A DNA stretch of 64,000 bases from a virus, in IMG/VR virus record IMGVR_UViG_3300013119_001061. One strand, written 5' to 3'. Below are positions 28,641-60,859 of the stretch, piece after piece. The notes under the pieces are model-generated. The model saw only the letters and a program-made list of their open reading frames with translations. It did not search any database and was not told the DNA's origin. Made by a program: the position numbers and the translations under genes. Each line of letters starts with the position of its first letter. The stretch's first letter is position 1.

Positions 28641-28685
28641 TTATATATGGAACTAAAACCTCGTTAAAACTATAGGTGGAATATT

Positions 28686-40330: not shown

Positions 40331-40947
40331 AACGATATCTCATAATTGGTTCAATACTCTGCATGCTAGGTGGGGCATGCCCAGAAGATGAAAAATATAA
40401 AGTGCCTGAATATGATATGATTCGAGGCCCAGTTCGCATTGAGCCAAGAGATACAGCGGGAATTGCAGATCTACTCGAAGTTCAGTCATATCAAGTTTCA
40501 TTTGTCAGAGATCGACTCTCCAGCCGCCAGACTGATAATGTACTAGAAGTGATGAATGCTGCCAAGCTTTACAAGTATGATGTGCATGATCTTCTAGCGA
40601 TTGCATTCAAGGAGTCTTCATTTCACAATGATGTAATATCAGATACCGGAGACGTCGGACTATTCCAGGTAAACTATCACTGGTGGGGAAAGAAACTTGG
40701 ATACAAAGACTTTAGACACTTTTACCAGGCTAATATAGTTCCCAAAAGAAATGCCCGACATGCAATCGAAATACTCAGAACATTTTCTCCCAAAAAGGCA
40801 TGCAAGGGAAATAATCTGTTTGCATGTTACAATGGCGGCCCCGGGTGGAAAATGTCCAAAAATGTTAGATACATCAAGCATTATCGTGACAACGTAGTAA
40901 AAACTCGTGACAACATAAAAAGGAATTACCCAGAATGGGCAAAGTAA
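40327..40947 (+). CDS. Lytic transglycosylase (SLT) with a possible lipoprotein signal
   Basis: AIAFKESSF, GLFQVN, ACYNGG; N-terminal hydrophobic stretch ending LGGAC. Confidence 0.8.
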   Translation: MKRYLIIGSILCMLGGACPEDEKYKVPEYDMIRGPVRIEPRDTAGIADLLEVQSYQVSFVRDRLSSRQTDNVLEVMNAAKLYKYDVHDLLAIAFKESSFHNDVISDTGDVGLFQVNYHWWGKKLGYKDFRHFYQANIVPKRNARHAIEILRTFSPKKACKGNNLFACYNGGPGWKMSKNVRYIKHYRDNVVKTRDNIKRNYPEWAK

Positions 40948-41651
40948 AGAATAAGTCAATTGAACTGTATGGTGACGGAATTGGCAAAGTCGACTACATT
41001 CAGCATATGGGGTCTGATCTAACGATTGCTAACTCTGCCCGCGTAAGCTTCGGGGCACAAAAGAAAAGGCTAGACAATAAAGACAAAAAGCTAATCAAGT
41101 ATTTGCTTAAACACAAGCATACAAGCGTTCTTGAGCACAACACAGTCACGTTCAGATTCAAGGTTCCGCTCTACATCAGATCGCAGCATCACAGACATCG
41201 AACCTGGAGCTACAATGAAATCTCGAGAAGATACACGTCTGTTGATCTTAGGTTTTATGAGCCTGAATCGTTTAGGACTCAACACGCATCAAATCGTCAA
41301 TCAAGCAATAGCGATAACGTAAATCCAGAAATTGAATGGTCGGATGCAACTCACTACGGCAAAAAAGCGTCTGAAGTTGTTAAAAAGCATCACAAATATT
41401 GCATGAAGCTATTCGAAGATCTGATGGAAGCTGGCGTCTGCAGGGAACAAGCACGAGGTGTTCTCCCGCAAAATGCATATACAGAATACTATGGAACTGT
41501 CAACCTCGGAAACTTGCTAAAATTTGTTGAGCTTAGAACACATGATGGGGCTCAATGGGAAATCCAGCAAGTTGCAAATGCATGTTTAAAAATCGCTGAA
41601 GAATTATGGCCAGAAACAATCAAGGCTTATAAACAAATCCGTGAGCTATAG
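40935..41651 (+). CDS. thyX: Flavin-dependent thymidylate synthase (canonical)
   Basis: ARVS, H.S..EH, RHRTWSYNEISRRY, EQARGVLP, AQWEI. Confidence 0.95.
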   Translation: MGKVKNKSIELYGDGIGKVDYIQHMGSDLTIANSARVSFGAQKKRLDNKDKKLIKYLLKHKHTSVLEHNTVTFRFKVPLYIRSQHHRHRTWSYNEISRRYTSVDLRFYEPESFRTQHASNRQSSNSDNVNPEIEWSDATHYGKKASEVVKKHHKYCMKLFEDLMEAGVCREQARGVLPQNAYTEYYGTVNLGNLLKFVELRTHDGAQWEIQQVANACLKIAEELWPETIKAYKQIREL

Positions 41652-41662
41652 GTAGAATATTA

Positions 41663-41869
41663 ATGTCAAATGAAAAGGTTGATCATCCAAGCCACTACAA
41701 TCAAGGCAAAATAGAAGTTATTGATGCTATTGATGATTGGGAATTAGGTTTTTATGAGGGCAATATAATAAAATATGTTGCAAGATATCAGCACAAAGAA
41801 GATCCAGTTGCAGATCTTAAAAAAGCAGCGTGGTATTTGAATAGATTGATTGAATTAAAGGAGAAGTAA
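41663..41869 (+). CDS. DUF3310 protein (T7 gp1.7 nucleotide-kinase-like domain)
   Basis: VDHPSHY, IEVIDAI, GNIIKY, DLKKA.WYL. Confidence 0.85.
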   Translation: MSNEKVDHPSHYNQGKIEVIDAIDDWELGFYEGNIIKYVARYQHKEDPVADLKKAAWYLNRLIELKEK

Positions 41870-42345: not shown

Positions 42346-42576
42346 ATGGCAAAGAAAATTTATAGACTTGATGATGAGGTAGTTGCAGAGGTCGCCCGGT
42401 CACTCCAGCGCGCCCTTTTAACCGGAACTGACATTGTCGATCACATTCGTGCAATTGAGCTCAATGTAGCCCGAGGAACGGGAGCAATCCAGCTTAGTGC
42501 TGAGTATCTAGCTCGAACACAAGAGAATGACAATCGAATGGTCGACGAAGCCCAAGAGCTTACACTCGAGAACTAA
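42346..42576 (+). CDS. Hypothetical protein
   Basis: SD AGGA; LQRALLTGTDIVDHIR. Confidence 0.6.
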   Translation: MAKKIYRLDDEVVAEVARSLQRALLTGTDIVDHIRAIELNVARGTGAIQLSAEYLARTQENDNRMVDEAQELTLEN

Positions 42577-42580
42577 TACA

Positions 42581-42958
42581 GTGACATATACAGACAGATT
42601 AGACTGTATCTTCCATTTGCAAGAAGCATTTATGAAGGATCTGTCTGATAAAAAAGAAAAGCTGCCAGAATGGCCCGTAGATCCAAGCGATAAAAAAGCC
42701 CAGCAGTTCATCAGGGATATCATTCATCGAGGCACAGAGGAATCGTATGAAGCTCTGGCGCACCTTAAGAACTGGAAGCCTCACAAACACACTGAAACTA
42801 AAGAGTTCAATAGGGCCGAGTTCCTAGAGGAAATGGTAGATGACTTTACCTATAAGCTCGAGGCTCTGATTCTAATGGGATATGACCCGCAAGAGTTCTT
42901 CGATGCGTTCTGCGACAAGAACCGAAAGAATTTAGATAGGGTAAACGGCGATTATTGA
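42581..42958 (+). CDS. All-alpha (dimeric dUTPase / T4 gp56 / MazG-like) dNTP pyrophosphatase
   Basis: EESYEAL.HLKNWKPH, EFLEEMVD, KN..N..R; likely GTG start at 42581. Confidence 0.75.
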   Translation: MTYTDRLDCIFHLQEAFMKDLSDKKEKLPEWPVDPSDKKAQQFIRDIIHRGTEESYEALAHLKNWKPHKHTETKEFNRAEFLEEMVDDFTYKLEALILMGYDPQEFFDAFCDKNRKNLDRVNGDY

Positions 42959-42991
42959 TCTGATCTCGATATTTAATAATGTGAGATTATA

Positions 42992-44671
42992 ATGCCGCTT
43001 ACTAAAATACACACTGATGACATATTGTCAGGCTCTATATCCGCAGGATCAATTGGGCCTGACATAGTCACAGGACAATCTGCTTCTACTAGCGCTGATG
43101 ACAATGATCTAATTTTAATATATGATGATACTACATCTGCATTACGCAAGATGACACGCGCCAATTTCACATCAGGCCTAGGCGGATCTTTAGACGTAGC
43201 TTATAATGCTGGAAGCGTTATAACAGCTGATACAGGGCCAGTCGAAATACAAGATACCAGCAATACAAATGCTGTAACAACCCTTTTGAAATTAGCGGTC
43301 TCCGGCTCAGTCACAGGAGGCGGCGCCGCCGGCCCCGAGATACAGTTTACAATACCGGTTAGCGGCGGCTCAAAAATAGGATCTGCAATAAGAGGTGTTA
43401 AGTTTGCTTCAAGCACATCTGACTCAACTGGAGAAATGCAATTTCTTTGCTCAGACAATGATGAGACGCTCGATCTAAGATTGAAAATGGATGGGACTGG
43501 GATAGCCGTTCAGGGTGCAGGGTCAACTCTAGCATATCCTAGTAGCGGCGACTCTTTTATTGTGGCATCCTCTGGGAATGACTATTCGATAGCAGTAACA
43601 AATTCAAATGGCAATGTAGGCATTGGCAATAGAAGTGCTGCAGAGTTGTTAGAGGTAGAAGACGGTACCGGCGCCACTACAATTCAGATTAACAATACTG
43701 CTACTAGCGGTGATCCACAATTAGCTTTTGCTCTTAGTGGAACTAAGAAGTTCACAATGGGTGTTGATGACTCTGATTCTGACAAGTTTAAAATTGGAAC
43801 AACAGCAGTTGCTACAAGCACAAGGTTGACAATAGATTCCTCTGGTAATGTCGGTATAGGTGAAACAAGTCCATCATATAATCTTCATATATCTTCTACG
43901 GGTGATGCCGCGCTCTATCTTGAAGCAGATACAAACAATACACCTGAAGATGATAATGCATTTATAAAATTATCCCAGGACAATACAGCAGTTCAATCAA
44001 TCATAGGGTTGTGCGGAGCAACAAATAAGGATCCGGAGAACGTTACATACACGGGTGTCGTTAATAATAACATGCTTATTGGTACAACAACAAACTATGG
44101 TTTGCAGCTAGGTACAAACGATAACGTTAGAATGACGATTGAAAATTCGGGATACGTTGGAATAGGGGACACTTCCCCGTCATATCCCCTGTCTTTGTCA
44201 AATAGCAACTCCGCCGGTTATGTTGCGCAGTTTTATAACAGCTATAACGGCAGCGCCGGCGGACTATGGGTCAAAGCAGGTAATACATCATCAACAGGCT
44301 CTCCTCATCCACTCATAGTGCAGTCTTACAGTGGCACAAATCAATTCTACGTGCGTCAGGATGGCAAATACTATCACAGAGGATCGTCGGTGTCAACGGC
44401 AGACAGCAAGCGAGATATTATAGCATTGTCAGAAAATGCTGTTAATATGCTGAAGAATATCCGAGTAGTTACATACAACTACATAGAAGACACAAATGAC
44501 AGAGTTGCAAGAATTGGATTTATTGCAGATGACACTGACAACCAGCTGGCAATTGATAGTCGACTTACCGACGGCGGAACAGGGTTTGATGTCCAAACAA
44601 TTGTAGGAACATTAATAAAAGCAATTCAAGAACTAAATCAAAGAATCGAAACTTTAGAAAGCGGGAGCTAA
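42992..44671 (+). CDS. Tail fibre / spike with C-terminal S74 intramolecular chaperone
   Basis: GNVGIG repeats; STADSKRDI, IGFIA, LIKAIQEL...IETLE. Confidence 0.8.
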   Translation: MPLTKIHTDDILSGSISAGSIGPDIVTGQSASTSADDNDLILIYDDTTSALRKMTRANFTSGLGGSLDVAYNAGSVITADTGPVEIQDTSNTNAVTTLLKLAVSGSVTGGGAAGPEIQFTIPVSGGSKIGSAIRGVKFASSTSDSTGEMQFLCSDNDETLDLRLKMDGTGIAVQGAGSTLAYPSSGDSFIVASSGNDYSIAVTNSNGNVGIGNRSAAELLEVEDGTGATTIQINNTATSGDPQLAFALSGTKKFTMGVDDSDSDKFKIGTTAVATSTRLTIDSSGNVGIGETSPSYNLHISSTGDAALYLEADTNNTPEDDNAFIKLSQDNTAVQSIIGLCGATNKDPENVTYTGVVNNNMLIGTTTNYGLQLGTNDNVRMTIENSGYVGIGDTSPSYPLSLSNSNSAGYVAQFYNSYNGSAGGLWVKAGNTSSTGSPHPLIVQSYSGTNQFYVRQDGKYYHRGSSVSTADSKRDIIALSENAVNMLKNIRVVTYNYIEDTNDRVARIGFIADDTDNQLAIDSRLTDGGTGFDVQTIVGTLIKAIQELNQRIETLESGS

Positions 44672-44673
44672 TA

Positions 44674-46092
44674 ATGGGAACAACAGGAATACGCGGAACA
44701 CAAATCAAAGATGAGACAGTCGAGTCAGTTGATATAGCATCAGGCTCAATCAAAATGGGTGAACTCAGCACTGATATCATAACAAGTCAGACAGCTGAAA
44801 CGTCTGTAGCTGACGGCGATCTAGTCTTGATTTATGATACATCAGCGTCAGCATTTAGAAAGATGACAAAGTCGAATTTCACGTCCGGAGTTACTGCAGA
44901 TCCTGCGGGTTCTGACGGCCAGATTCAATATAATAACGGAGGATCCGCAGGGGGTGCTTCAGGGCTGTATTACGACGACGTCAATAATCGACTAGGCGTA
45001 GGGACCTCATCACCCGCAGCATTGCTCCACATAACCTCCTCTGCAGACGGAGATGTGCTATTTCGTGCAACGCCATATAACCAGTCAAATGATGGTCTTG
45101 TTGTAACTGATAGAGACGGTGCAACATATGTCACCCTTAACAAAGCAGGACAATCAACATATCCGCTTGACGTAAACGGAAATATAAGAGGCATAGCATT
45201 TATTTCCACCGTTGATAGCACGAGTTACGGATTCAGGGTCGGACAATCCCAACACACTCTATACGGAGTAGCAGAAGGAAACACAGATCAAGGAGCTGTC
45301 TTCCTGATGAAGAATAACGGGGGCTTAGTTATCAGCGGCAGTGATACATCTAGCCCTCTCCGCGTCCAATCACCAAGCAGTTCAAATATTTTAGTAGCAT
45401 CAGGTTCTGGCAAGGTGGGAATAGGAACTGACTCCCCTGATAGAGCCCTTGATATTCTTGACGCATCAAATCCCCAGCTTCGATTAACACATACAGACAA
45501 TACTGAGTATACAGATTTTCAAACTGACTCTTCTGGAAACCTAGCAATCGGATCGTCGGGTGATACTGTAGAGATCCAATATGGGGGATCGACTGCTGCG
45601 CTAGACATATTCAGTAAATCAACTGACGTTTATATTCGAGGAAAACAACAAGATATTGATGTTAACTTTCAAGTTAACGACGGCGGATCAACAACGACAG
45701 TTTTAAATCTTGATGCTGCAAATTCTATGGCAAATATAGCTAAGTTCTTGTCATACCAGTCAGTGACATACGATTTAGGCTCCGGAACAACATCAACAAT
45801 TACTCCTACTGCCTCATGCCATTTATTGACTGCTACAACCATAACGGGTGATATGGGAGTGCATACAATTACATTAGCAAATGGAACTGTATCAGGTCAA
45901 GTTTTGCAATTAATTATGAATTCAACTACTAATAGCATAAACATTCAATTTGATGCAACAACGAATATCCAGGGAACGTGGTCGGGCGGAATAGGAATTC
46001 CAGCAGATGCAATCGGAGCTGCCCTGACGTTTATCTGGAATGGGTCATCATGGACGCTAATGAATAGCAACGGCTTAACAATGGCATCATAA
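44674..46092 (+). CDS. Fibre-like virion protein
   Basis: N-terminus paralogous to the previous gene; QIQYN, LGVGT/VGIGT repeats. Confidence 0.7.
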   Translation: MGTTGIRGTQIKDETVESVDIASGSIKMGELSTDIITSQTAETSVADGDLVLIYDTSASAFRKMTKSNFTSGVTADPAGSDGQIQYNNGGSAGGASGLYYDDVNNRLGVGTSSPAALLHITSSADGDVLFRATPYNQSNDGLVVTDRDGATYVTLNKAGQSTYPLDVNGNIRGIAFISTVDSTSYGFRVGQSQHTLYGVAEGNTDQGAVFLMKNNGGLVISGSDTSSPLRVQSPSSSNILVASGSGKVGIGTDSPDRALDILDASNPQLRLTHTDNTEYTDFQTDSSGNLAIGSSGDTVEIQYGGSTAALDIFSKSTDVYIRGKQQDIDVNFQVNDGGSTTTVLNLDAANSMANIAKFLSYQSVTYDLGSGTTSTITPTASCHLLTATTITGDMGVHTITLANGTVSGQVLQLIMNSTTNSINIQFDATTNIQGTWSGGIGIPADAIGAALTFIWNGSSWTLMNSNGLTMAS

Positions 46093-46123
46093 ACATTTTT
46101 TAGACACATAATATAATCTTTAT

Positions 46124-47089
46124 ATGATAGACAAACTAAACCTACAGCGGCTCTTCGAGGTCCAGAATGAATTTTCTGAACTGTTCAATAAAAGAAATGA
46201 CCTAACCATAGGAGAAAGAGAAAAGCTCACACAGGAGTTCTCTCTGGCACTTCACAGTGAAATCTCGTCACTAATCAGCGAGATCAATTTCAAGAGTCAC
46301 TCCCGAGACAAGAAGCAGGTTGTTGAAAACAGCATTCTATTTGAAGGTGTTGATATCTTCCGCTATCTTCTGGCAATCTTAAATCTATGGGGGTTCTCGG
46401 CCGAGGACTTTGCACAAGCATTTGACGATAAAGAGAACTACCTCCAAGTCAAGTATGTCAAGAATGCTCAAAAGTGGGAAGGTCAACCTGTAATTCTGGT
46501 TGATGCTGATGATGTTATTGTAGAGTTCAGAAAAGGATACAGTGATTATCTCAATTCACATGAAGGAATTACTGTTGATCCTGCCTCATCGGAATACTAC
46601 TTTACCAGTGGTATTCCAAAAGAGTTGTATAATCCTGAGCAGCTATTCCAGGATTTTATTGACCAGCGCCGCCTAAAAAACCTCGAGGCTACAACATCAA
46701 CAATTGAGGCTTTAAATGAACTATATGATCAAGGTTACTGGATTCAGATTCTAACTGCACGACCTTCCGCCAACAAGACATGTCAATATGACACCTACAG
46801 CTGGCTCGAGAATAGCGGACTCAAGTTTCACAAAGTTGACTTCTCGCCTGAAAAAATGATCTGGGCAGCTCACAGCCCATACTACGATGAAGGAAAGATT
46901 GTCTGTGCAATTGACGATTCAGCCAAACATGCAATGGAATATGCAAAGCACGGAATCAAGGTTGCAGCACCAGTTCAGCCCTATAATGGTGAGCTAGAAG
47001 GCGTTGACAATATTGTCATGTTCAAAACAGGTGAAGAATTAAGAGAAGTAGTGAAACAATTCTCTCATTCACGAATATTTAGTATATGA
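46124..47089 (+). CDS. Fusion of all-alpha dNTP pyrophosphatase and HAD 5'(3')-deoxyribonucleotidase
   Basis: N-part: EISSLISEINFK.H...EGVDIFRY; C-part: VDADDVI, ILTAR, IDDS. Confidence 0.75.
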   Translation: MIDKLNLQRLFEVQNEFSELFNKRNDLTIGEREKLTQEFSLALHSEISSLISEINFKSHSRDKKQVVENSILFEGVDIFRYLLAILNLWGFSAEDFAQAFDDKENYLQVKYVKNAQKWEGQPVILVDADDVIVEFRKGYSDYLNSHEGITVDPASSEYYFTSGIPKELYNPEQLFQDFIDQRRLKNLEATTSTIEALNELYDQGYWIQILTARPSANKTCQYDTYSWLENSGLKFHKVDFSPEKMIWAAHSPYYDEGKIVCAIDDSAKHAMEYAKHGIKVAAPVQPYNGELEGVDNIVMFKTGEELREVVKQFSHSRIFSI

Positions 47090-47766
47090 TCAAAATTACA
47101 GTAAAAGAGTTACGAAGCTTAATCAGGGAATCTATGATGGATTTAAATCCTGATCTAAAACCAGATTGCGATACTTTTGCAGTCTTTGACTTTGATGAAA
47201 CACTTGCTTTGACAAATTCAAGCGTTCTCGTTAAAAACAAAGAAGGCAAGACAATCAAGGAATTGTCTCCCGCAGAATATGCAATTTACAAAGAAGAGCC
47301 AGGTGAGGTATTCGACTTTAGTGAGTTTGATATTGTTAAAGATGGTCGTCCTACTCCTCTTATGAATATTTTGAGAGACGTTGCATCATGCGGCACTACA
47401 GCTGCTGCAATCCTTACAGCCCGAGGTCCCGCAGCGAAAGGTCCTATTAGAGACTTTCTTAAGACAATGGGCATAAAGCTGCAGATTATCGATACTGTAA
47501 ATACATCAAATCCTCAAGCTAAGGCTGACAAGATTCGAGGATATGTAACGTCATTTACACCACGAGTTCTTCACTTTTTTGAGGATTCACCCAAAAATAT
47601 CGAAGCAGTTCGGCAGTTAGCAAAGAAAAATCCTGCAATGTCAAATGTTCAAATTGTGCTCCATCACATTGTTGATCCCGAGGGCGACATGAAGATCAAT
47701 ATTGAAGAGGTCGAGAACGAAGGAATGGAAGCAGTGACTGCCATAATTGATTCAAACCACGTTTGA
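47086..47766 (+). CDS. HAD-family phosphatase with an N-terminal ELRSLIRE leader
   Basis: FDFDETL, ILTARG, FFEDS.KN. Confidence 0.75.
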   Translation: MIKITVKELRSLIRESMMDLNPDLKPDCDTFAVFDFDETLALTNSSVLVKNKEGKTIKELSPAEYAIYKEEPGEVFDFSEFDIVKDGRPTPLMNILRDVASCGTTAAAILTARGPAAKGPIRDFLKTMGIKLQIIDTVNTSNPQAKADKIRGYVTSFTPRVLHFFEDSPKNIEAVRQLAKKNPAMSNVQIVLHHIVDPEGDMKINIEEVENEGMEAVTAIIDSNHV

Positions 47767-47791
47767 ACATTACCTCCTGATAGCATATAAT
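47763..47791 (+). promoter_or_regulatory. Sigma70-like promoter for the ThyX2 cluster
   Basis: TTGAAC-N17-TATAAT. Confidence 0.75.
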
Positions 47792-47820
47792 CATTTATAA
47801 TAATTCATAAGGAGGCTACT

Positions 47821-48804
47821 TTGCCACAAAATCTAGACCTGACGCCTGTGACTCTTCCAATGCCATTACGATTTGGGGAGACTCCACAAACAGAATTCGT
47901 TAACGATCTTGACGCACTTAAAGTTGAGCTTGTTGATCATCCAACCGCAGAACAAATTAGAAACGTTGCATATCGATATGTTAAAGCAACCTGGGCAGAT
48001 TCACCTGAGGAAACAAACCCCTTGAATGCCACCCAGCGCGAGCTAAGTGAGACGCTTGAAGAAGTTCTCCAGTTTCGTGCTCTTCCCGCCGGAATGGAGG
48101 CTATGAGCTTCACATTCCTCGTCTCAGGTATTGATCTCCAGACTGTAACACATTTGATTCGTCATCGTGCAGGAACCTATGCAGCACAATGCACGGGCGA
48201 CCGCTGGCAGTCACATTCTCGGGTTTTGGTACCGGCTGCTGTACAAAACACCCCAGAGCTTTATGAGCGCTGGCAGAAGAATGTTCAAGAAAGCAAGCAG
48301 CTATATGCTGATATGATTGACACACGAAAGATTTCAATTATGGATGCACGTACAATCTTGCCCCGCGCCGTTGAGACCTTCTATTACGCCAGGTTCAATC
48401 TAAAAGATCTAATGGGCTTCATTCGTCAGCGGTGTGATAAGCAGATCCAGCCGGCTGCCGACAATATTATGGCAGCACAAATGGCCTTGGCAGTATGTAG
48501 GGTAATTCCTGAGGCAGCTATGTCTATCGGAACGCGTACTCTTACAGGCCCGGCAATGCATTATGTTCGAAACATGAGATCAGGAACCGGAACTAATCTT
48601 TATTGGCCTGATGCAGACACTGATGCCAAGATCGAATATCATCCTGAGGATACGATCTATCAGGCAGAACGTGACAACGTTAATGGAACTAATCCTCCGG
48701 CAAATGAGACAGGTGAGAATAGCAAGTTCCGTCAGCATTGGAATGGATTACTATCACAGATTCGTGATATTGAGACTGAGTACAAGGATAAGATGGGGCG
48801 ATAA
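47821..48804 (+). CDS. Divergent second ThyX-fold flavoprotein
   Basis: E..SFTF...GI, THLIRHRAGTYAAQCTGDR, DARTILP, FIRQRC; TTG start after AAGGAGG. Confidence 0.8.
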   Translation: MPQNLDLTPVTLPMPLRFGETPQTEFVNDLDALKVELVDHPTAEQIRNVAYRYVKATWADSPEETNPLNATQRELSETLEEVLQFRALPAGMEAMSFTFLVSGIDLQTVTHLIRHRAGTYAAQCTGDRWQSHSRVLVPAAVQNTPELYERWQKNVQESKQLYADMIDTRKISIMDARTILPRAVETFYYARFNLKDLMGFIRQRCDKQIQPAADNIMAAQMALAVCRVIPEAAMSIGTRTLTGPAMHYVRNMRSGTGTNLYWPDADTDAKIEYHPEDTIYQAERDNVNGTNPPANETGENSKFRQHWNGLLSQIRDIETEYKDKMGR

Positions 48805-49076
48805 TGCCGTTCGCCAATAAAGATACACATCGAAGGCGAAAGCTAATATTTGATCTAATCGATGAGGGTTTGTCTACGGGTGAGGTAAATGATAAGCTCA
48901 AAGATCAGAACCATCATCCTTTAGACAAAAGTGAAGAAAGTGTCTGGTTCCAGTTTTTGCATCCGGTATCAAAGAGAGATGAGATAATCTATAGAGGCGT
49001 GGTTGCTGATGGGAAAGATCTTGCCTGGGTAGGAAGAACGCTTAAGCATAGACATAATAAGCAAACAATATCATGA
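48804..49076 (+). CDS. Hypothetical protein
   Basis: Translationally coupled ORF. Confidence 0.5.
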   Translation: MPFANKDTHRRRKLIFDLIDEGLSTGEVNDKLKDQNHHPLDKSEESVWFQFLHPVSKRDEIIYRGVVADGKDLAWVGRTLKHRHNKQTIS

Positions 49077-49291
49077 GTCTTGACGAAATTGATCTTCATG
49101 GTTTGAGTCATGATTACGCAAAAAAGGTTCTTATGAGTTGGGCAAAGAAACATCATGTCCCATTTCGAGTCATTACAGGAAATAGTAATACGATGGAAAA
49201 AATTGTTCGAGAAGCATTTGATAACAAAAAATACAGATGTGAATATGAGAGTTACCATAATTTAGGAGCATTAATTGTCACAAAACGATAA
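49073..49291 (+). CDS. Stand-alone Smr domain protein
   Basis: IDLHG...VITG...NLGAL. Confidence 0.75.
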   Translation: MSLDEIDLHGLSHDYAKKVLMSWAKKHHVPFRVITGNSNTMEKIVREAFDNKKYRCEYESYHNLGALIVTKR

Positions 49292-49502
49292 TGATGACTA
49301 CGATGAAGAAGAGATAGTCGAGGAGATAATCTTTGATATATCTGCAGACGATGAAGAAGCGGCAGGAAAGATGATTATCTTGTCACTCTTTAAATCAATT
49401 CAAGATGAACAACGAAGAAGCCAGTTTTATTTTACACTTATACCCTTAGCATTTTCCTTCGGGTTGTTGCTGGGTTATTATATTTCATTCACGAATCTTT
49501 GA
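49275..49502 (+). CDS. Small acidic membrane protein
   Basis: Acidic N-terminus and C-terminal hydrophobic helix. Confidence 0.5.
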   Translation: MSQNDNDDYDEEEIVEEIIFDISADDEEAAGKMIILSLFKSIQDEQRRSQFYFTLIPLAFSFGLLLGYYISFTNL

Positions 49503-49518
49503 AAGGATCAATACAAAA

Positions 49519-49956
49519 ATGAAGGTTTATATCGCATCACCGTTTTTCAACCCAAAGCAAGTTGAGCAAGTCGAGTTTATGAAGACTGCATTGTCTGAGA
49601 CCGGCCATGAGTATTTTAGCCCCAAGGACTTTTTTGTCCTCAAGCCTAATGCAACGCAAGAAGATCGAACACGAATCTTTGATGTCAATTGCGAGAAGAT
49701 CCAGTGGGCTGACTTTGTTCTTTGCAATACTGAGGCAAAAGATCTGGGAACGATTTGGGAAGCCGGATACGCATACGGAATCGATAAACCAGTAGCATTC
49801 TTTGCTGAGGGTTTGCCAGAGGGTAAATTTAACGTAATGCTTAGTGAGGGCGGAATGTCAGTCAACACGACCCGCGAAGGTCTTACTGAGTACTTACAAA
49901 AATGCACTGACACAAATGAGCTTGTCTTCGAGCAGTATTCAGGCAATACTCAATAG
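49519..49956 (+). CDS. Nucleoside 2'-deoxyribosyltransferase / dNMP N-glycosidase family protein
   Basis: VYIASPFF, FSP, DLGTIWEAGYA, NVML. Confidence 0.88.
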   Translation: MKVYIASPFFNPKQVEQVEFMKTALSETGHEYFSPKDFFVLKPNATQEDRTRIFDVNCEKIQWADFVLCNTEAKDLGTIWEAGYAYGIDKPVAFFAEGLPEGKFNVMLSEGGMSVNTTREGLTEYLQKCTDTNELVFEQYSGNTQ

Positions 49957-49958
49957 AG

Positions 49959-50090
49959 ATGAGAAAAATCATTTTATTCTTTGCAATGTCTTTGTTGATA
50001 TCGTGTGTTCACAAACAACACCCAGCTGATACGTTCTGGGCCAAGACACTTGATTGCGACCCAAACGAGGCAGCATGTGAAGAATTCTAG
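49959..50090 (+). CDS. Small lipoprotein (43 aa, below the ORF-track cut-off)
   Basis: MRKIILFFAMSLLISC lipobox. Confidence 0.6.
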   Translation: MRKIILFFAMSLLISCVHKQHPADTFWAKTLDCDPNEAACEEF

Positions 50091-50112
50091 CTTTAACTTA
50101 AAGGAGAAAACA

Positions 50113-50643
50113 ATGATTAAAGCACTATCAATCGCTGCAGTACTTCTATTGACTGCAAATACTGCACAAGCAGATGAACAACGAATCGGTTTTGTAGCAG
50201 GCTCAACTTATGGTGTAGGTCTAGCTTACTCTAAACAATACGAAAGCGGGCATGGCTGGCAAATCTCAGCATTACCAATTGTTGAAGACAACCTAGACTC
50301 AACAATCTTTTTGGGAGCTACTAAGTTTAAGACACTTAATTCCTCAAGCTGGGGAAGAGCATATTGGTCACTAGGAATCGCAACCCTATATCGCAGAGAT
50401 ACTGGGCTTTCATTCGAAGAAGTATGCGACGATAACGGATGTGAAGAAACAGAAGTCCAGGGCGAAAAAGAAGAATTTCTTTTGATGTCGTTTGGTCCAG
50501 GTGTTGGCCTCGAACGAAGATGGAAGCAGTTTGCAATATCTCTTGAGCTTCCACTTGCAATTCAGGTAGGTAGATCTAACAACCAGTTCGGTTTTGCTGG
50601 CATGAGACCAATCCCTAATTTCTCACTAATGTATTTCTGGTAG
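50113..50643 (+). CDS. Secreted outer-membrane beta-barrel-like protein
   Basis: ATG 50113 after AAGGAG; signal peptide ending AQA; alternating beta strands; C-terminal YFW. Confidence 0.65.
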   Translation: MIKALSIAAVLLLTANTAQADEQRIGFVAGSTYGVGLAYSKQYESGHGWQISALPIVEDNLDSTIFLGATKFKTLNSSSWGRAYWSLGIATLYRRDTGLSFEEVCDDNGCEETEVQGEKEEFLLMSFGPGVGLERRWKQFAISLELPLAIQVGRSNNQFGFAGMRPIPNFSLMYFW

Positions 50644-50649
50644 ACAATA

Positions 50650-51618
50650 ATGAGAATTGCAATTACAGGCGAAGCTGGGTTTATCGGTAGAAACTTACCT
50701 GTCTCCATTGAAGGTTTGGGGCATACATTTGTTCCACTTTTAAATCACGAGAAAATGGTTTGTCTTTCAACCGGTGAACCCTGCGTTCATCAAAATGATT
50801 CCGATCTTTGGGCAGAGGTCTTTGAAGAAGAAGATATCGATGTTGTCATTCATAACGCTGCTGTAGTCGGAACAGATGTAGTTGCGCTCAGCCCAAACGA
50901 AGCATCGCTTACAAACGTTTCTGGAACTCATGTGATTTGTCAGGCTGCAAAGAAAGCAGATGTTGCTGTATCATATATGGGCACAACGGTAATCTATGAC
51001 ACTGGTGCATATCAACATCAGCTTATACACGAGAACTCTGAGAGAATGCCAACCACGCTGTATGGCGCCCAAAAACTAGCATCAGAATATATTGTCATGT
51101 CTTCGAAGATTAAGTTTAATGTCATCCGCCCGCTTTTTGCTTACGGCGGAGTTGGTGATATGAACTCACTGATATCAAAGACTCTGTATGCTGTCAAAGC
51201 GGGAAGGGAAAATATTGATATGTTCCTCGACCCAAAGAAGATTAAAGACTACATGCACGTAACAGATTATTGTGATGCAGTAGCTTTATCAATCCATAGA
51301 GGTATGTGGGGGACTGACTACAACGTTTCCGCCGAGAATCCATATAATACGTGGGAGATTGCTAAGATGATATCAGATACAGCAGGAAAAGATCTGGAAA
51401 ATATCATTAACTGGCATCCCGAAACAGATTATCTGGGAAATCATAGACTTACGTCAGACAAGTTCAGAAATGAAACAAGTTGGAAACCTAAATTCGATCT
51501 TAAGGCAGGTATCGAATTATCGTGGGAGTCAATAAGCAAAGATGAGTCTGGGTATGACCCGCTGATTTATCTAGACGAAGCGTCTGAAAGAGGATTAGAT
51601 CTCACACAGTTTTATTAG
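50650..51618 (+). CDS. NAD-dependent (NDP-sugar) epimerase/dehydratase, extended SDR
   Basis: TGEAGFIG, HNAA, YGAQK, DYMHV.D. Confidence 0.9.
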   Translation: MRIAITGEAGFIGRNLPVSIEGLGHTFVPLLNHEKMVCLSTGEPCVHQNDSDLWAEVFEEEDIDVVIHNAAVVGTDVVALSPNEASLTNVSGTHVICQAAKKADVAVSYMGTTVIYDTGAYQHQLIHENSERMPTTLYGAQKLASEYIVMSSKIKFNVIRPLFAYGGVGDMNSLISKTLYAVKAGRENIDMFLDPKKIKDYMHVTDYCDAVALSIHRGMWGTDYNVSAENPYNTWEIAKMISDTAGKDLENIINWHPETDYLGNHRLTSDKFRNETSWKPKFDLKAGIELSWESISKDESGYDPLIYLDEASERGLDLTQFY

Positions 51619-55101: not shown

Positions 55102-56970
55102 ATGGGCGGTCTATACGGGCACATGAGTCATATTCACGAGGATCTTGATCTTTCGTTTAATAATATCATTGATATTCTTCAAAACCTTTCTGAGTTTCGA
55201 ATCGAGCCATTTGAAAAAATGGATGGTCAAAATATTAATTTCACGGTTGACTCCGATGACAACATTCGACTAGCTCGAAACAAAGGAAACATCCAGGCAG
55301 GCGGCTTAAGCACAGCTGAATATTCTGCAATGTGGAAAGATCATCCAGCACAAGAGTCATTTATGCGAGGATTCGAGGCAATCCAAGCAGTGCTCAGAGT
55401 CTTGTCAAGCGAAGAGAAGCAATCTTTATTCGCCACCGGCAATAGATATCAAAACGCGGAGATCGTCTATCCCGAGGGAAAAAATATCATCAAGTACGAT
55501 GCACCAATGATCCGTCTTCATGAGGCTGCAATCCTATTTGATCGTGAATCTGGATTGCAGGTTGAAAACGACCGCGAGGCTTTTGCAGTAGCAAAGAAGC
55601 TGGGTGATATCATCGGTCATCTTAAAGTGGCAGTTCGAGGAGAAGAATGGCAAATCAGGAAGCCCAACAATGTAGTTCTTAACGTAATCAATCGGACTCA
55701 TTTTGAGACTGCTGCAAGCCGCTTAGAAACGCTAGCCGGCTACTACGTTACTCGCCCAATCTCTGACTGGGTTGAAAGCAAGATCAGGCCCGATCTTTTG
55801 CAGCAAGGGCTAAATGAAAATGTCATCAATCATGTAGTCAATGCCATGCTGCGCAAGCAAGGTGCAATGACAGCTGTTCAAATCAAGAAGTTAGTTCCAA
55901 AAGATCAAAAGTCAATTGTGTCTCAATACGCAACAAAGTTGACTGCAGCTAAAAGAATCAAAGAGAAGACTGCAGATATCGAGATGATCATTAACGATTT
56001 CGCAATGGAGCTGCTAAGAGACATTCCCTCTGAGTTCGTTAATAATCACAACATCGAAGTTCAGAGAATACAAAGAGAATTACAGCAGTCAATTACGACA
56101 CTACAACATGCAGCATCAGCCGGTGACATGTCTGCCAGGGACTTGCTAAGCAAACAAATGCCAAAGCTGGGAAGTGTATCAAAATTAACTTCATCGCTTG
56201 AAGGCATTGTATTTCAATATCCGAAAAACTCAGGCAGAATCTATAAGCTCACCGGTGCCTTTGCAATGACCAACCAGCTAATTGGGCGCGCAACCAGGAT
56301 GAATGTGCCGTCTGGCCCACTGGACAAAACAAAAGCTGCTTCTCAAAAGATTGCACTAATCCCAATGTCGGCCAAGCCCTATCACAAAGGTCATCATATG
56401 CAGGTTCGGCATGCATCGGCAACTTGTGATCATGTATATGTCTATGTTTCCCCTACAGACAGACAAAGAAAAGGAGAGCTCCCCGTCTTTGCCTCAAGCT
56501 TGAAGACATACTGGAGAGATCATATTATTCCAAGCTTGCCCGATAATGTAACTGCAATCACTACGGGATATTCTATGTTTGGCCTGAACCATCACCCGTT
56601 AGCATCACCCGTGTCAGCTGTATACGCCCACCTTGAGTCTGCAGAATCTGCGGGAAGCAACAATACTTTCTACATATACTCAGATGAAAAAGATACAGGC
56701 AATGCATTCCCAGAAAAAAGCGTAATCAAAAGCGCATCATCATTGCATGCAAATAAGCAAATCAAGTTCCCGGGAGTCGAAGACAAAAATAGCTTGCCCA
56801 GAGTTGCCAGCGGTACAGAAGTCAGAAAAGCAGTGTCAGATAACAACTTTGATACATTCAGAAGCTTAATTCCCGATTTTATGTCAACCAAAGACAAACG
56901 AAGTCTGTTCACGATCCTCAGAATGCCAGAATCAAAAATGGGAAATCTAATGCCAATTTCAATGGGATAG
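55102..56970 (+). CDS. Ligase-fold nucleotidyltransferase domain fused to a HIGH-motif (cytidylyltransferase-like) domain
   Basis: GHMSH, EKMDG, EGIVF, YKLTG; then PMSAKPYHKGH ... SGTEVR. Confidence 0.65.
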   Translation: MGGLYGHMSHIHEDLDLSFNNIIDILQNLSEFRIEPFEKMDGQNINFTVDSDDNIRLARNKGNIQAGGLSTAEYSAMWKDHPAQESFMRGFEAIQAVLRVLSSEEKQSLFATGNRYQNAEIVYPEGKNIIKYDAPMIRLHEAAILFDRESGLQVENDREAFAVAKKLGDIIGHLKVAVRGEEWQIRKPNNVVLNVINRTHFETAASRLETLAGYYVTRPISDWVESKIRPDLLQQGLNENVINHVVNAMLRKQGAMTAVQIKKLVPKDQKSIVSQYATKLTAAKRIKEKTADIEMIINDFAMELLRDIPSEFVNNHNIEVQRIQRELQQSITTLQHAASAGDMSARDLLSKQMPKLGSVSKLTSSLEGIVFQYPKNSGRIYKLTGAFAMTNQLIGRATRMNVPSGPLDKTKAASQKIALIPMSAKPYHKGHHMQVRHASATCDHVYVYVSPTDRQRKGELPVFASSLKTYWRDHIIPSLPDNVTAITTGYSMFGLNHHPLASPVSAVYAHLESAESAGSNNTFYIYSDEKDTGNAFPEKSVIKSASSLHANKQIKFPGVEDKNSLPRVASGTEVRKAVSDNNFDTFRSLIPDFMSTKDKRSLFTILRMPESKMGNLMPISMG

Positions 56971-57574: not shown

Positions 57575-57982
57575 GTGTACTATAAATTAAAAGCCATTGC
57601 TCAGAATTATTCTGAAAATGCACACAATTACAACATCTCAGCATGCGTCACAGTAGGCAAGACGAGGTTCTACGGCTGGAACAGCTATGACACTCATCCA
57701 TTTGCCAAGCGTGAGCTCAAGTGTTCATCTACTGGCGAGAGCGTGGTAAGTTATTGCTACCATGCTGAGGTTCATGCACTTCAAAAGGCACTGAGGTTCA
57801 CGCAGAAAATGAAATCCGCTGATATTGCGGTAGCAAGAGTTCTGGCAGATGGAAGCTTTACAATGGCAAAGCCCTGTGAACACTGCCAGGGTAAAATGAG
57901 AGATATTGGCATCAATCCATCAAAGATCAAGTATACGAATTGGGATGGAAACTTTGTTACGCTTAATTCGTATGAGTGTTGA
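57575..57982 (+). CDS. Zn-dependent cytidine/dCMP deaminase-like protein
   Basis: HAE ... KPCEHC. Confidence 0.85.
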   Translation: MYYKLKAIAQNYSENAHNYNISACVTVGKTRFYGWNSYDTHPFAKRELKCSSTGESVVSYCYHAEVHALQKALRFTQKMKSADIAVARVLADGSFTMAKPCEHCQGKMRDIGINPSKIKYTNWDGNFVTLNSYEC

Positions 57983-58046: not shown

Positions 58047-59762
58047 TTGTCACATTCAGATACGAAAGGAGACTTCGGAAGCTTTGTGCGCCCCAATCGA
58101 TTCGTCGGTTTACACGGGCACTCAGGCTTCTCGTAGTCGACTTACGACGGACTCGGCTATCCAGCTCAGCATATTGACTTCGTTCTTGACAACGAAATGG
58201 ATGCATGGGCACTAACTGACCACGGTCACGGCTCTGGCTTAGCACATGCTCACAAGCACTTCGACAAAATGAAGAAGGCCGGCCGCAAGTATCGGCAGGT
58301 ATACGGTGTTGAGTTCTACTTCGTCGAGGATCTCGATGTTTGGAAGCAAAACTACCTGGGTCACAAAGAAAAAGTCAAGGCTGAGAGAGATGCAAAGAAA
58401 GCTGAGAAGCTTGCAACAACCGATCTAAGCTCTGACAATGAAGATGATCTCAAATCTGAAGGACACACCATTGAGAATGAGGAGGAGTCAAAAGGCGGAG
58501 GTAAGGGGAAACCCGAATGGATGCGCCGCTATCACCTCGTAATCACTGCAAGAAACGCAGCAGGCCTAGCCAATCTTTTCACGCTAGTAAAGAGAGGATA
58601 CACCGACGGCTTCTATCGGTTCCCACGAATTGACTTCAAGCTTCTCAAGCAATACAGCGAAGGTCTAACTGTAAGCTCAGCATGCATTGGCGGAATTACC
58701 GCAGGACGAACATTCCAGCAATTCCCGGGCGTTGATTTCATGGATCTTAAGCCTGATTTGCTAGATGACCCGTCAAAGATGAAGAATCTGATGGGTGTGC
58801 TCGGAAACATAACAGATCGGTTTGTCGATGCAGTAGGACAAGACAACTTCTTCTATGAGCTGCAGTTCAATAAGCTCCCAGCCCAGCATCTATCTAACCG
58901 TGCGCTTCTCGAACTACACGATCAGACGGGAATCGGGCTTATCACCACATGTGACTCCCACTATCCCGGCAAAGAATTATGGGAAGCCCGGGAGCTATAT
59001 AAGAAGCTAGGCTGGATGGGAAATGATCCGTCACCTTTGCCGAAGTTCGACGAGCTAAAGTGTGAGCTTTATCCAAAAAATGCCTCAGAGGTGTGGGATG
59101 AGTTCGACCGCGACTGGCATGCCTATGACTTTTACAAAGGCAGGGAAGAGCTTATTAGAGATAGTGTAGAGAGGACACACGATATTGTCTGGGATCGTTA
59201 TGAAGATGTATGGGTCGACTCTAAGGCTAAGCTACCAAACTATGCTGTGCCTCAAAAGGGACATGCATGCTATCCTGAGGCACCCAAAGATACACCCTTT
59301 CAGCAGCTTGGAAAGCTTGTAAAAGCAGCAATGATCAGTCATGATATGGCCGAAAAACCTGAGTATGTTGCGAGGATCAAAGAAGAGCTAGCTGACATTA
59401 AGTTCCTCGGATTTGAAAACTACTTCCTGACAATGTATGATGTTTTCCACTTGGCCGAGAAGAAAACTCTCTTTGGGCCTGGCCGCGGCTGCTTTTTACC
59501 TGATACACGTGTAAAAATGTCCGACGGATTAATGAACACAATTGAAGCAATTTCTCCCGGTGATCACGTAATTGACGCATACGGAGAAAGTCAAGAGGTT
59601 ATAAAGAAGTTTGTATATGATATCGAGGAAGATATTGTTGAGCTTGAATTTGATGATGGTATCGTAATTAAGTGCACAGTAGATCATAAGTTCTTGACGT
59701 CAAATCGAGGATGGGTTGAGGCTCAAAACTTAAGCGACGAAGATGTTATTGTTGATGTTTGA
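58047..59762 (+). CDS. dnaE: DNA polymerase III alpha N-terminal half (PHP domain) plus split-intein N-fragment; in-frame TAG at 58134-58136
   Basis: FVGLHGHSGFS*STYDG lies upstream of the tracked ORF (58197); ALTDHG, YGVEFY, SACIGG, DSHY, YFL, GPGRG|CFL. Start (TTG 58047 or GTG 58086) is uncertain. Confidence 0.9.
59490..59759 (+). mobile_element. Split intein IntN (90 aa)
   Basis: CFLPDTRV, GDHV, CTVDHKFLT..RGWVEA..L. Confidence 0.93.
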
Positions 59763-59808
59763 TATTTATAAATAGTTTAGTTATTCGACCCGGCCCGATA
59801 TACTTATA

Positions 59809-60771: not shown

Positions 60772-60859
60772 AAAGCTTGTTCCGTATGATGGAAAAGTAA
60801 TTGACCTATGTGTTGAAAATTCACACACGTATAACGTTGAAGGAAAAGCAGTTCACAAT
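60752..60859 (+). mobile_element. Split intein IntC (36 aa)
   Basis: MTKLISKK, VIDLCVENSHTY, terminal HN, Ser as +1 residue. Confidence 0.93.

Follow-up and report, generated by a model that had tools for sequence, protein, structure and literature searches.

A large uncultured marine phage encodes, next to a normal thymidylate synthase, a conserved nucleotide-metabolism gene set built around a second ThyX-fold enzyme whose active site has been rewired. We found this second enzyme, a Cys-type ThyX paralog that we call ThyXL, only in viruses in our searches. Across distinct phage lineages it travels with a nucleoside 2-deoxyribosyltransferase (NDT)-family enzyme, a 5'-deoxynucleotidase, all-alpha dNTP pyrophosphatases and a thymidylate-kinase-like kinase. 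In our best reading, which we hold to be about as likely as not, the module makes a C5-modified pyrimidine dNMP before replication and removes or recycles the competing canonical nucleotide. No experiment has yet shown what the enzyme makes, and no paper in the literature we searched describes the clade.

Results

A nucleotide-metabolism region with two ThyX genes

We analyzed a 64,000-nucleotide stretch of IMG/VR record IMGVR_UViG_3300013119_001061, referred to here as the window. An earlier note, made from the sequence alone, had proposed an undescribed pathway for a non-canonical nucleotide or DNA modification between positions 42,581 and 51,618. It listed a dNTP pyrophosphatase, a pyrophosphatase-nucleotidase fusion, a divergent ThyX, an NDT-type enzyme and an NDP-sugar epimerase in that region, with a canonical ThyX, a trimeric dUTPase, a DUF3310 protein, a deaminase and a dNMP kinase elsewhere in the window. 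The observation is confirmed: each of these genes is an open plus-strand frame with family support (Table 1). Three further features in the span had not been mentioned, namely two tail-fibre-like genes, a second intact HAD phosphatase and several small ORFs.

Table 1. Features of the nucleotide-metabolism region and their supporting evidence.
Position	Strand	Feature	Evidence
30556-31020	+	Trimeric dUTPase (the ordinary dUTP sanitiser, so the all-alpha pyrophosphatases are extra)	PF00692 3.5e-21
40935-41651	+	Canonical flavin-dependent thymidylate synthase ThyX (the ordinary dTMP route)	Thy1 1.8e-48; signature RHRTWSYNEISRRY, with S-x-R-Y; T. maritima and T. thermophilus ThyX at about 1e-37
41663-41869	+	DUF3310 protein	1.7e-19
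42346-42576	+	Small conserved protein of unknown function (76 aa); always precedes the MazG-like gene in the jumbo lineage	Found in 88 fetched loci; matches no family
42581-42958	+	Stand-alone MazG-like all-alpha nucleoside triphosphate pyrophosphohydrolase (125 aa)	No Pfam hit; PHROG 12184 at 4.9e-11, PHROG 173 at 5.5e-10; EExxE and EExxD motifs (EESYE, EEMVDD); conserved upstream of the paralog in the jumbo lineage
42992-46092		Two tail-fibre-like genes
46124-47089	+	Fusion of an all-alpha dNTP pyrophosphatase (residues 1-115) with a HAD 5'-deoxyribonucleotidase-like domain (residues 116-321)	dUTPase_2 1e-5 (26.3 bits, cut-off 22.9); NT5C 5.8e-4 (20.2 bits, below the 24.8 cut-off); PHROG 173 and 2643; HAD motifs VDADDV, ILTAR and IDDS
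47086-47766	+	Second, stand-alone HAD phosphatase (226 aa)	Motifs DFDET, ILTARG and EDS; weak PHROG 415 and TIGR01509 hits
47821-48804	+	Cys-type ThyX paralog, ThyXL (327 aa from the TTG start)	Thy1 3.6e-20 (73 bits, cut-off 24.8); motif RHRAGTYAAQCTGDR
49519-49956	+	NDT-family enzyme (145 aa)	PF05014 1.5e-15 (57.8 bits, cut-off 28.8); best solved relative the N-deoxyribosyltransferase 6EVS at 1.1e-14
50650-51618	+	Extended SDR (NDP-sugar epimerase/dehydratase family)	PF01370 (Epimerase) 1.6e-27 (97 bits)
57575-57982	+	dCMP/cytidine deaminase-family protein (possible dUMP supply)	PF00383 4.3e-8
63544-63999	+	Thymidylate-kinase-like P-loop kinase, cut by the end of the window	PHROG 761 "thymidylate kinase" at 3.2e-9

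The paralog has a rewired ThyX active site

The TTG start of ThyXL is supported by a conserved N-terminus, MPxNxxLxPV, in relatives. Its AF2 model has a pLDDT of 96.7, and a Foldseek search with this model returned only ThyX and PolB, with TM 0.76-0.80 on the target. A profile alignment (hhalign) against canonical ThyX gave a probability of 98.4. However, identity to solved ThyX proteins is about 20%, about 40 N-terminal and 90 C-terminal residues are added, and the protein scores 56 bits against the curated ThyX equivalog TIGR02170, below its cut-off of 87.9.

The canonical ThyX signature consists of RHRx7S followed by x-R-Y, where the last three named residues are Ser88, Arg90 and Tyr91 of T. 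maritima. In the ungapped profile alignment these positions read Cys, Gly and Asp in the paralog, and an ungapped phmmer alignment gives the same register. In addition, His53 of the LEH motif is replaced by Ala/Thr, as the window has MEA and the family consensus is LET. The RHR motif and the equivalents of Arg147 and Arg174 are kept, so a nucleoside monophosphate stacked on a flavin is the likely substrate geometry. Ser88 and Arg90 hydrogen-bond dUMP (PMC3498832), and the Tyr is the lid over dUMP C5 and flavin N5 (PMC6514825). In ThyA-fold hydroxymethylases a water-excluding hydrophobic residue is likewise replaced by Asp or Glu (PMC13326640). Conversion of dUMP to dTMP with CH2-THF, FAD and NADPH was not assayed.

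The new motif, C[TS][GA]D, is conserved across a very large family comprising 1325 clusters at 90% identity and 123 representatives at 50% identity with E<1e-10, although the Cys is replaced in some clade members. Two motif scans of 185,579 species genomes found no copy, and among 50,697 GenBank phage records we found one cultured carrier, Geobacillus phage GR1.

The paralog also sits beside a canonical thymidylate synthase in independent lineages. These are the window itself, two jumbo-phage records (G002 and G003) and two PolA-type records, one with ThyX (G007) and one with full-length ThyA (G010). Sixteen canonical copies share a fetched locus with a Cys-type copy.

Predicted functions of the neighboring enzymes

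The fused protein at 46124 has an AF2 model with a pLDDT of 93.8. The model shows four helices at residues 7-115, and human mitochondrial (mdN) and cytosolic (cdN) 5'(3')-deoxyribonucleotidases are among its best structural matches, with TM 0.72-0.81 on the target. The DxD, T and DD motifs of HAD enzymes are present. Because the Pfam NT5C score is below cut-off, membership in this family rests on fold, and the substrate was not examined. In relatives that lack the fused nucleotidase domain, a homolog of the stand-alone HAD phosphatase sits next to NDT, as in the gene order of two fetched loci (L013 and L036).

The NDT-family enzyme keeps the catalytic Glu context DLGTIWEAG, which aligns to the Glu region of 6EVS and 1S2D, as well as the motifs ASPFFN and NVM. 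We saw no DNPH1-type (GSIRGG-type) phosphate loop. The closest solved protein is a true NDT, but this comparison is of sequence alone and does not settle whether the enzyme is a transferase on nucleosides or hydrolyzes dNMPs in the manner of DNPH1 or MilB. The SDR contains a Rossmann domain with a YxxxK motif, YGAQK, that aligns with dTDP-glucose 4,6-dehydratases, the nearest solved proteins (3.5e-19). It reaches no NCBIfam equivalog cut-off.

The module is conserved across phage lineages

Co-occurrence across related genomes had been suggested beforehand as a way to check the pathway. Among 132 distinct Cys-type proteins, NDT lies within 6 kb of 111, a nucleotidase of 111, both of 100, a pyrophosphatase of 96 and a kinase like the one in the window of 50. 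A deaminase lies near the paralog in 19 of 132. In 10 canonical-only loci NDT is near 0 and the kinase near 0; adjacency of these two genes is seen for Cys-type copies but not in these loci. The partners recur in phages with DnaE, PolA and PolB replication modules, and kinase homologs occur within 6 kb of the paralog in all three lineages. The nucleotidase is HAD-type in jumbo phages but HD/YfbR-type in GR1 and in two clusters of PolA-type phages (22/22 and 20/20), a non-orthologous displacement of one activity. In the same PolA-type clusters, a pyrophosphatase lies within 6 kb of the paralog in only 4 of 22 and 4 of 20 loci, and a kinase in 2 and 0.

A sugar appendage is not supported as part of the core

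The earlier note had suggested that the modified base might carry a sugar. The SDR gene lies near the paralog only in the jumbo-phage lineage (33 of 132) and is absent from the PolA-type and PolB-type carriers, making it a lineage-specific neighbor and not a core partner. The note had reported no glycosyltransferase in the window and advised looking for one beyond it; we found none among the window's unassigned ORFs, and the GT1 and GT2 clusters in relatives lie about 100 kb from the module. No DNA glycosyltransferase or other post-replicative tailoring enzyme linked to the modifier was found in the window. Hints for sugar remain: one GT2::ThyX-like fusion, an annotated glycosyltransferase near the GR1 copy (where a nitroreductase also lies) and a GT8 gene about 5 kb from the paralog on one relative contig, with matches in three fetched loci.

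Discussion

Given these results, we conclude that the note's interpretation is only partly supported. A dedicated nucleotide pathway built on a ThyX fold is supported, whereas the sugar appendage is not supported as stated. The presence of a modified base in the DNA was not measured, and an ordinary thymidylate and salvage reading is not excluded.

We propose that ThyXL takes a pyrimidine deoxynucleoside monophosphate, more likely dUMP than dCMP, and installs a C5 group other than the methyl of dTMP, most plausibly hydroxymethyl and alternatively hydroxyl. The thymidylate-kinase-like kinase would then start phosphorylation so that the phage DnaE polymerase can incorporate the product. In this view, the two all-alpha dNTP pyrophosphatases, the mdN-like 5'-deoxynucleotidase(s) and the nucleoside-level NDT would form a drain for the competing canonical pyrimidine. 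The drain would run from dNTP to dNMP to deoxynucleoside to base exchange or hydrolysis, returning deoxyribose to the pool. Any sugar decoration would be optional and lineage-specific. While the gene identities, folds, active-site substitutions and cross-lineage co-occurrence come directly from our analysis, the substrate, the product, its incorporation into DNA and the direction of flux through the nucleotidase and NDT are inferences from them.

Several findings weigh against this proposal. There is no chemical evidence, and the paper on GR1, the only cultured carrier found, reports nothing on its DNA. Every partner family also fits ordinary dTTP synthesis and salvage. Near-complete PolA-type genomes of 43-45 kb have neither a canonical ThyX nor a ThyA, and given the scarcity of kinases near the paralog in the PolA-type clusters, host kinases would have to accept the product. 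A canonical ThyX 6 kb upstream of a thymine-excluding drain would be contradictory, so either the drain targets another nucleotide or replacement is partial. Finally, GTAC (59 against 118 expected, z -6.6) and CATG (171 against 237, z -5.4) are strongly depleted in the window, which suggests that the DNA is still exposed to some restriction enzymes.

The main alternative, which we consider unlikely but do not exclude, is that ThyXL is a divergent but genuine thymidylate synthase and that its neighbors perform ordinary pyrimidine salvage and pool rebalancing, leaving the DNA canonical. The nucleotidase plus NDT would convert surplus host-derived deoxynucleotides into the deoxynucleosides an AT-rich phage needs, while the dUTPase-like enzymes, deaminase and thymidylate kinase would feed the normal dTTP route. 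Indeed, a dUTPase-type pyrophosphatase, dCMP deaminase, thymidylate synthase and thymidylate kinase together form the textbook dTTP pathway. The paralog is the only thymidylate-synthase-like gene in two near-complete PolA-type genomes (G006 and G008) and in GR1. GR1 has 32.3% G+C (PMC10237291). Its host has about 52% G+C, so the thymidylate demand of the phage is high. Avoidance of GTAC and CATG also fits unprotected DNA. However, four residues invariant in canonical ThyX are replaced, including two dUMP ligands and the lid over the reacting atoms, and the equivalog score and the nearby canonical ThyX or ThyA in several lineages argue against this reading. A 5'-deoxynucleotidase works against dTTP synthesis, and the NDT and kinase adjacency is not seen in the canonical-only loci.

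A more doubtful possibility is that the module makes or destroys a small molecule that never enters DNA. The ThyX-like enzyme would modify a nucleotide, and the nucleotidase and NDT-family enzyme would release a modified nucleoside or free base, resembling the MilA/MilB route to free 5-hydroxymethylcytosine. Alternatively, the set might simply starve the host or a defense system of a nucleotide. A thymidylate-synthase-like enzyme paired with an NDT-family N-glycosidase is a known route to a free modified base in nucleoside-antibiotic biosynthesis (PMC4081090, PMC5175136), and the minimal conserved triad here is nucleotidase, NDT and paralog, often without a kinase. Against this, the module always sits inside the replication gene block next to the polymerase, the kinase is a frequent partner, and by sequence the NDT resembles true transferases rather than MilB-type hydrolases.

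Finally, it is very unlikely that the genes are neighbors only through synteny of one phage family's replication and nucleotide-metabolism block: although 82 of 142 distinct proteins in the fetched loci come from one jumbo-phage family with a nearly fixed gene order, the same partners flank the paralog, in differing gene orders and with a non-homologous nucleotidase, in DnaE-, PolA- and PolB-type phages whose paralogs share under 50% identity.

A bolder version of our proposal is possible, though we hold it only tentatively. Here, a Cys-bearing ThyX-fold flavoenzyme would perform C5 chemistry unknown for flavin-dependent thymidylate synthases, either hydroxymethylation by hydration of the exocyclic methylene or flavin/O2 hydroxylation. 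The resulting non-canonical pyrimidine would partly or fully replace T or C in the DNA of abundant, uncultured marine jumbo phages and many smaller phages, and the nucleotidase plus NDT would be a new way to exclude the canonical nucleotide while recycling its deoxyribose. All pre-replicative pyrimidine modifiers that we are aware of or found in the papers searched are ThyA-fold enzymes. A ThyX-fold counterpart would be an independent invention of the same strategy and would add new flavin chemistry to a drug-target family. It would also point to a DNA base that standard metagenomics cannot see, in a phage group with over a thousand sequence clusters in public marine data. The conserved nucleotidase and NDT pair suggests a new kind of pool control, and the enzymes are small and soluble-looking.

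The module shares the logic of its parts with T4-type and SPO1-type base replacement, in which a ThyA-fold dCMP or dUMP hydroxymethylase acts with a dCTPase/dUTPase or dTTPase, a dNMP kinase and DNA glucosyltransferases. In both cases a thymidylate-synthase-like modifier, an all-alpha dNTP pyrophosphatase, a dedicated kinase and a dCMP deaminase lie inside the replication block. Here, however, the modifier has the unrelated ThyX flavin fold, and the near-constant partners include a 5'-deoxynucleotidase and an NDT, neither of which we are aware of among the parts of those systems. The 5-hydroxy-dCMP synthase of RB69/DLP3, which acts with arabinosylation, provides a precedent for a thymidylate-synthase-family enzyme that uses a flavin and O2 for non-methyl C5 chemistry, followed by a dNMP kinase and NDP-sugar enzymes (PMC13326640). 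That enzyme is ThyA-fold with a loosely bound flavin, whereas here the fold is ThyX and the sugar enzymes are not core.

MilA/MilB and BcmA/BcmB, in which a thymidylate-synthase-like CMP hydroxymethylase is paired with an NDT-family N-glycosidase, represent the only known pathway type we found that combines these two kinds of enzyme. Those pairs belong to bacterial antibiotic pathways, have a ThyA fold, act on ribonucleotides and end in a free base. PolB of polyoxin biosynthesis (PDB 4P5A/4P5B), a ThyX homolog that acts as a UMP/dUMP C5-methylase and is among the top structural matches of ThyXL, shows that the ThyX fold has been recruited for an altered substrate. By its PDB title PolB is still a C5-methylase, and by sequence it groups with canonical ThyX, although its motif was not examined: the canonical copy matches 4P5A at 1.9e-25, whereas the paralog finds no PolB chain at E<=0.01.

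In PBS2 and hydroxymethyluracil Bacillus phages, thymine is excluded by a dTMP nucleotidase and a dTTPase, so that a pyrophosphatase plus a 5'-nucleotidase destroy a competing canonical nucleotide. The genes for those classical activities were not compared here. The fused HAD domain in the window is structurally closest to the dUMP/dTMP-preferring mdN and cdN enzymes, and this phage also keeps a canonical ThyX.

Genomic context of the module

All genes of the window lie on the + strand, at about 40% G+C. The first 27 kb holds T4-like structural genes, including a gp23-type capsid protein and two sheath paralogs of roughly 1,050 aa. From 27.9 kb on lies a replication and nucleotide block containing an intein-interrupted RecA, a trimeric dUTPase, a flap endonuclease, a DnaB helicase, a ribonucleotide reductase, type II topoisomerase subunits, ClpP, canonical ThyX, thioredoxin and a DnaE polymerase that is also interrupted by an intein. 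Megablast of the 9.2-kb stretch carrying the finding returned no match among GenBank phages, and the DnaE is at most about 31% identical to any phage record. Close relatives are IMG/VR contigs of up to 236 kb, and metagenome contigs reach 297 kb. A search of sequencing runs placed the stretch in marine and seawater metagenomes from two studies and listed no RNA data set, although no reads were mapped. We conclude that this is an uncultured marine jumbo myovirus.

Every gene that the earlier note listed is present and has family support. We checked the pyrophosphatase-nucleotidase fusion by fold: its predicted model (pLDDT 93.8) has a four-helix N-domain and a HAD domain, and mitochondrial and cytosolic 5'(3')-deoxyribonucleotidases are among the best structural matches of the latter. 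PDB sequence searches with the fusion, the MazG-like protein and the 303-aa kinase of the relatives gave nothing useful. The span also contains genes that the note did not mention, including a second HAD phosphatase and two tail-fibre-like genes that look like an insertion and not part of the pathway. We rejected any relationship between the 76-aa protein that precedes the MazG-like gene, DUF3310 and the DUF6378-like 105-aa neighbor, because profile-profile alignment gave a probability below 1.

Features of the window and of related loci (L, fetched loci; G, related genome records)
Sequence	Coordinates	Feature	Observation
Window	2463-3875	470-aa ORF between capsid and tail genes	NUMOD3 motif and a weak Mom-family match (24.6 bits, below the 27.1 cut-off); Mom is the phage Mu DNA adenine-modification enzyme family; no PDB relative by sequence
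Window	24506-25696	396-aa ORF	Matches family A DNA polymerase (positions 74-353 of 381), in a phage whose main polymerase is DnaE
Window	27885-30559	Split RecA	N-terminal RecA ORF, then a 336-aa ORF with no family, then an ORF with a weak intein-splicing C-terminal motif followed by the RecA C-terminus
Window	42992-46092	Two tail-fibre-like genes inside the nucleotide module	559 aa with an endosialidase-chaperone Peptidase_S74 domain, and 472 aa with a weak depolymerase C-terminal hit; homologs at this place only in the closest sublineage (L006, L010, L012)
Window	47086-47766	Second HAD phosphatase	Intact
Window	47821-48804	Cys-type ThyX paralog	ThyX fold
Window	55102-56970	622-aa protein	C-terminal cytidylyltransferase/NMN-adenylyltransferase-like domain and a 400-aa N-terminal part of unknown family; could be a nucleotide-sugar or NAD enzyme
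Window	58197-63370	Interrupted DnaE	Interrupted within the pol III alpha domain; the first ORF ends in Hint/intein-splicing motifs; a 320-aa ORF with no family follows and overlaps the start of the C-terminal DnaE ORF
Window; L013; G007	63544 to end; 19682-20593; 18071-18433	TMK-like kinase	About 300 aa in relatives, with a C-terminal piece that matches thymidylate synthase ThyA (PHROG 160; PF00303 positions 88-219, E 3.8e-16); the window's copy is cut by the window end
L013	8343-9146	Full-length Fpg/Nei-type DNA glycosylase (Fapy, H2TH and C-terminal domains)	Also in 46 other fetched loci; just upstream of the module in many jumbo-phage loci (within 6 kb of the paralog for 40 of 82 distinct copies); not found in the window
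G001; G003; G005	37-64 kb; 203-213 kb; 154-172 kb	Clusters of up to nine GT1 and GT2 glycosyltransferase genes	Far from the ThyX module; suggest phage-encoded glycan synthesis

The ThyX paralog carries substitutions at active-site positions

The AF2 model of the paralog has a pLDDT of 96.7, and all of its top PDB matches are ThyX or the ThyX-like methylase PolB, at about 20% identity. Profile-profile alignment to canonical phage ThyX (probability 98.4) is ungapped through the signature and places Cys on Ser88, Gly on Arg90, Asp on Tyr91 and Ala/Thr on His53 (T. maritima numbering). In contrast, the RHR motif and the equivalents of Arg147 and Arg174 are retained. A phmmer alignment against M. 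tuberculosis ThyX gives the same register.

In canonical enzymes, Ser88 and Arg90 hydrogen-bond dUMP (PMC3498832), and the Tyr forms a lid that shields dUMP C5 and flavin N5 from solvent (PMC6514825). Replacement of a water-excluding residue with Asp or Glu is what separates ThyA-fold hydroxymethylases from thymidylate synthases, and a ThyA-fold enzyme with a flavin hydroxylates dCMP in RB69 (PMC13326640). The substitutions therefore sit exactly where product chemistry is decided, although this is inferred and has not been demonstrated.

The paralog scores 56 bits against the 87.9-bit cut-off of the ThyX equivalog model. Its motif, C[TS][GA]D, is conserved over a very large family comprising 1325 clusters at 90% identity and 123 representatives at 50% identity with E<1e-10, but some members lack the Cys. 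Further rewired ThyX clades exist in mid-size phages (IMG/VR loci L102-L145), with the motifs QQCTGDxDxRH and a Cys-less QHGGRDNDWRH, and these are often next to pyrophosphatase::HAD fusions or TMK-like kinases. Two scans of genome contigs, limited to the motif patterns used, found no relative of the paralog, and tblastn searches of 50,697 GenBank phage records matched only Geobacillus phage GR1. The annotated thymidylate synthase of Xanthomonas phage Carpasina was rejected as a clade member because its motif is QQETSRAL and not the Cys-type motif.

The paralog and its partners recur across phage lineages

In the jumbo family the gene order is nearly fixed. Canonical ThyX in some members, and often an Fpg/Nei-type glycosylase, is followed by the 76-aa protein and the MazG-like gene; the pyrophosphatase::HAD fusion, the paralog and NDT; and often the SDR gene, then DnaE, the TMK-like kinase and a second SDR. 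That alone could be inherited synteny. The decisive point is that unrelated phages repeat the set in other orders. A PolA-type contig carries dUTPase_2, NDT, an HD/YfbR-like 5'-deoxynucleotidase, the paralog and a dCMP deaminase, while a PolB-type contig carries a pyrophosphatase, NDT, a TMK-like kinase and a GT2::paralog fusion. GR1 has NDT, thioredoxin, a YfbR-like HD protein, an annotated glycosyltransferase, a TMK-like kinase, RNase H, a nitroreductase and the paralog, with an all-alpha dUTP diphosphatase, a thymidine kinase and a second NDT elsewhere in its genome. Short contigs show paralog-kinase-NDT, or HD next to the paralog.

The earlier note had proposed co-occurrence across related genomes as a check on its pathway, and we counted partners over all fetched loci. 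Among 132 distinct Cys-type proteins, NDT lies within 6 kb of 111, a nucleotidase of 111, both of 100, an all-alpha pyrophosphatase of 96 and a TMK-like kinase of 50. In two PolA-type clusters, HD is present in 22/22 and 20/20 loci and NDT in 22/22 and 18/20. These counts are not phylogenetically independent. Our comparison set of non-Cys-type loci was not clean, as many belong to the further rewired clades described here, which also carry pyrophosphatase::HAD fusions. Only 10 truly canonical, Cys-free loci remained, a small control. These hold only a canonical S-x-R-Y/F ThyX, and none has NDT or the kinase nearby.

The nucleotidase is HAD-type in one set of lineages and HD-type in another, which argues that the activity itself is required. 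The NDT is closest to a true N-deoxyribosyltransferase (6EVS, 1.1e-14), keeps the catalytic Glu context and shows no dNMP-type phosphate loop. A nucleotidase that hands deoxynucleosides to the NDT is therefore the natural reading. No complex prediction was run.

We next asked whether the paralog is redundant with a canonical synthase. The window has canonical ThyX 6 kb upstream of the paralog, and the jumbo records G002 and G003 have both copies, whereas G001, the closest relative at 70% completeness, has only the paralog. Among PolA-type records, G010 (95% complete) has the paralog plus a full ThyA and G007 has the paralog plus canonical ThyX, but G006 (99% complete) and G008 (100% complete) have the paralog alone. 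Coexistence in several lineages argues for a distinct function, while the paralog-only genomes keep alive the possibility of an ordinary synthase.

A possible role in making a C5-modified pyrimidine

Our best reading, which we hold with only moderate confidence, is that the paralog makes a C5-modified pyrimidine dNMP. We favor a uracil-derived hydroxymethyl product because the phosphate and base-polarizing arginines are retained, the Tyr lid has become Asp, the kinase is thymidylate-kinase-like, and the fused nucleotidase resembles dUMP/dTMP-preferring enzymes. Alternatives are a cytosine substrate, in which case the Asp could read an amino group, or flavin/O2 hydroxylation. In this view, the pyrophosphatases, nucleotidase and NDT would drain or recycle the competing canonical nucleotide. 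The note's interpretation, a non-canonical nucleotide pathway built on a ThyX fold and possibly bearing a sugar, is supported only in part.

Several points weaken this reading. A canonical ThyX beside a thymine drain is contradictory unless replacement is partial or the drain has another target. In the PolA-type clusters, a kinase or pyrophosphatase is rarely near the paralog. Finally, GTAC is about two-fold depleted in the window (59 occurrences against 118 expected, z -6.6) and CATG about 1.4-fold (171 against 237 expected, z -5.4), although six-base palindromes as a class are not depleted (mean z +0.38). Of the other explanations, an ordinary divergent thymidylate synthase accompanied by salvage survives best but seems less likely. 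A small-molecule product that never enters DNA, or sabotage of the nucleotide pool, is unlikely. Mere synteny is very unlikely.

We also tested whether GR1 carries the known thymidine-hypermodification enzymes. Ten of its unassigned proteins showed only Amidoligase_2, GGACT, AAA_24, PhoH, DHH/RecJ and a weak NUDIX hit. As nothing among them resembled a 5-hmdU DNA kinase or an amino-acid:DNA transferase, we dropped that link. The GR1 paper says nothing about the phage's DNA, and literature searches for ThyX together with phage modification, deoxyribosyltransferase, or ThyX-like proteins, paralogs and homologs found no description of this clade or module. Pre-replicative pyrimidine modification is already known, and we place the finding with it; what differs here is the ThyX fold and the nucleotidase-NDT arm.

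A sugar appendage is not part of the conserved core

The note had also suggested that the modification might carry a sugar. The SDR is a genuine extended SDR, closest to dTDP-glucose 4,6-dehydratases, but it neighbors the paralog only in the jumbo lineage. We found no glycosyltransferase in the window. Atlas searches of two ORFs returned unknown viral clusters for the 212-aa protein and a PD-(D/E)XK lead for the 253-aa protein, which looks like a nuclease, and neither resembles a glycosyltransferase. A sugar appendage is possible in some lineages but is not part of the conserved core. The note had called for glycosyltransferases to be sought beyond the window, and in the relatives G001, G003 and G005 the GT1 and GT2 clusters lie about 100 kb from the module. 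GT8, however, sits about 5 kb from the paralog on the 297-kb relative contig and matches in three fetched loci.
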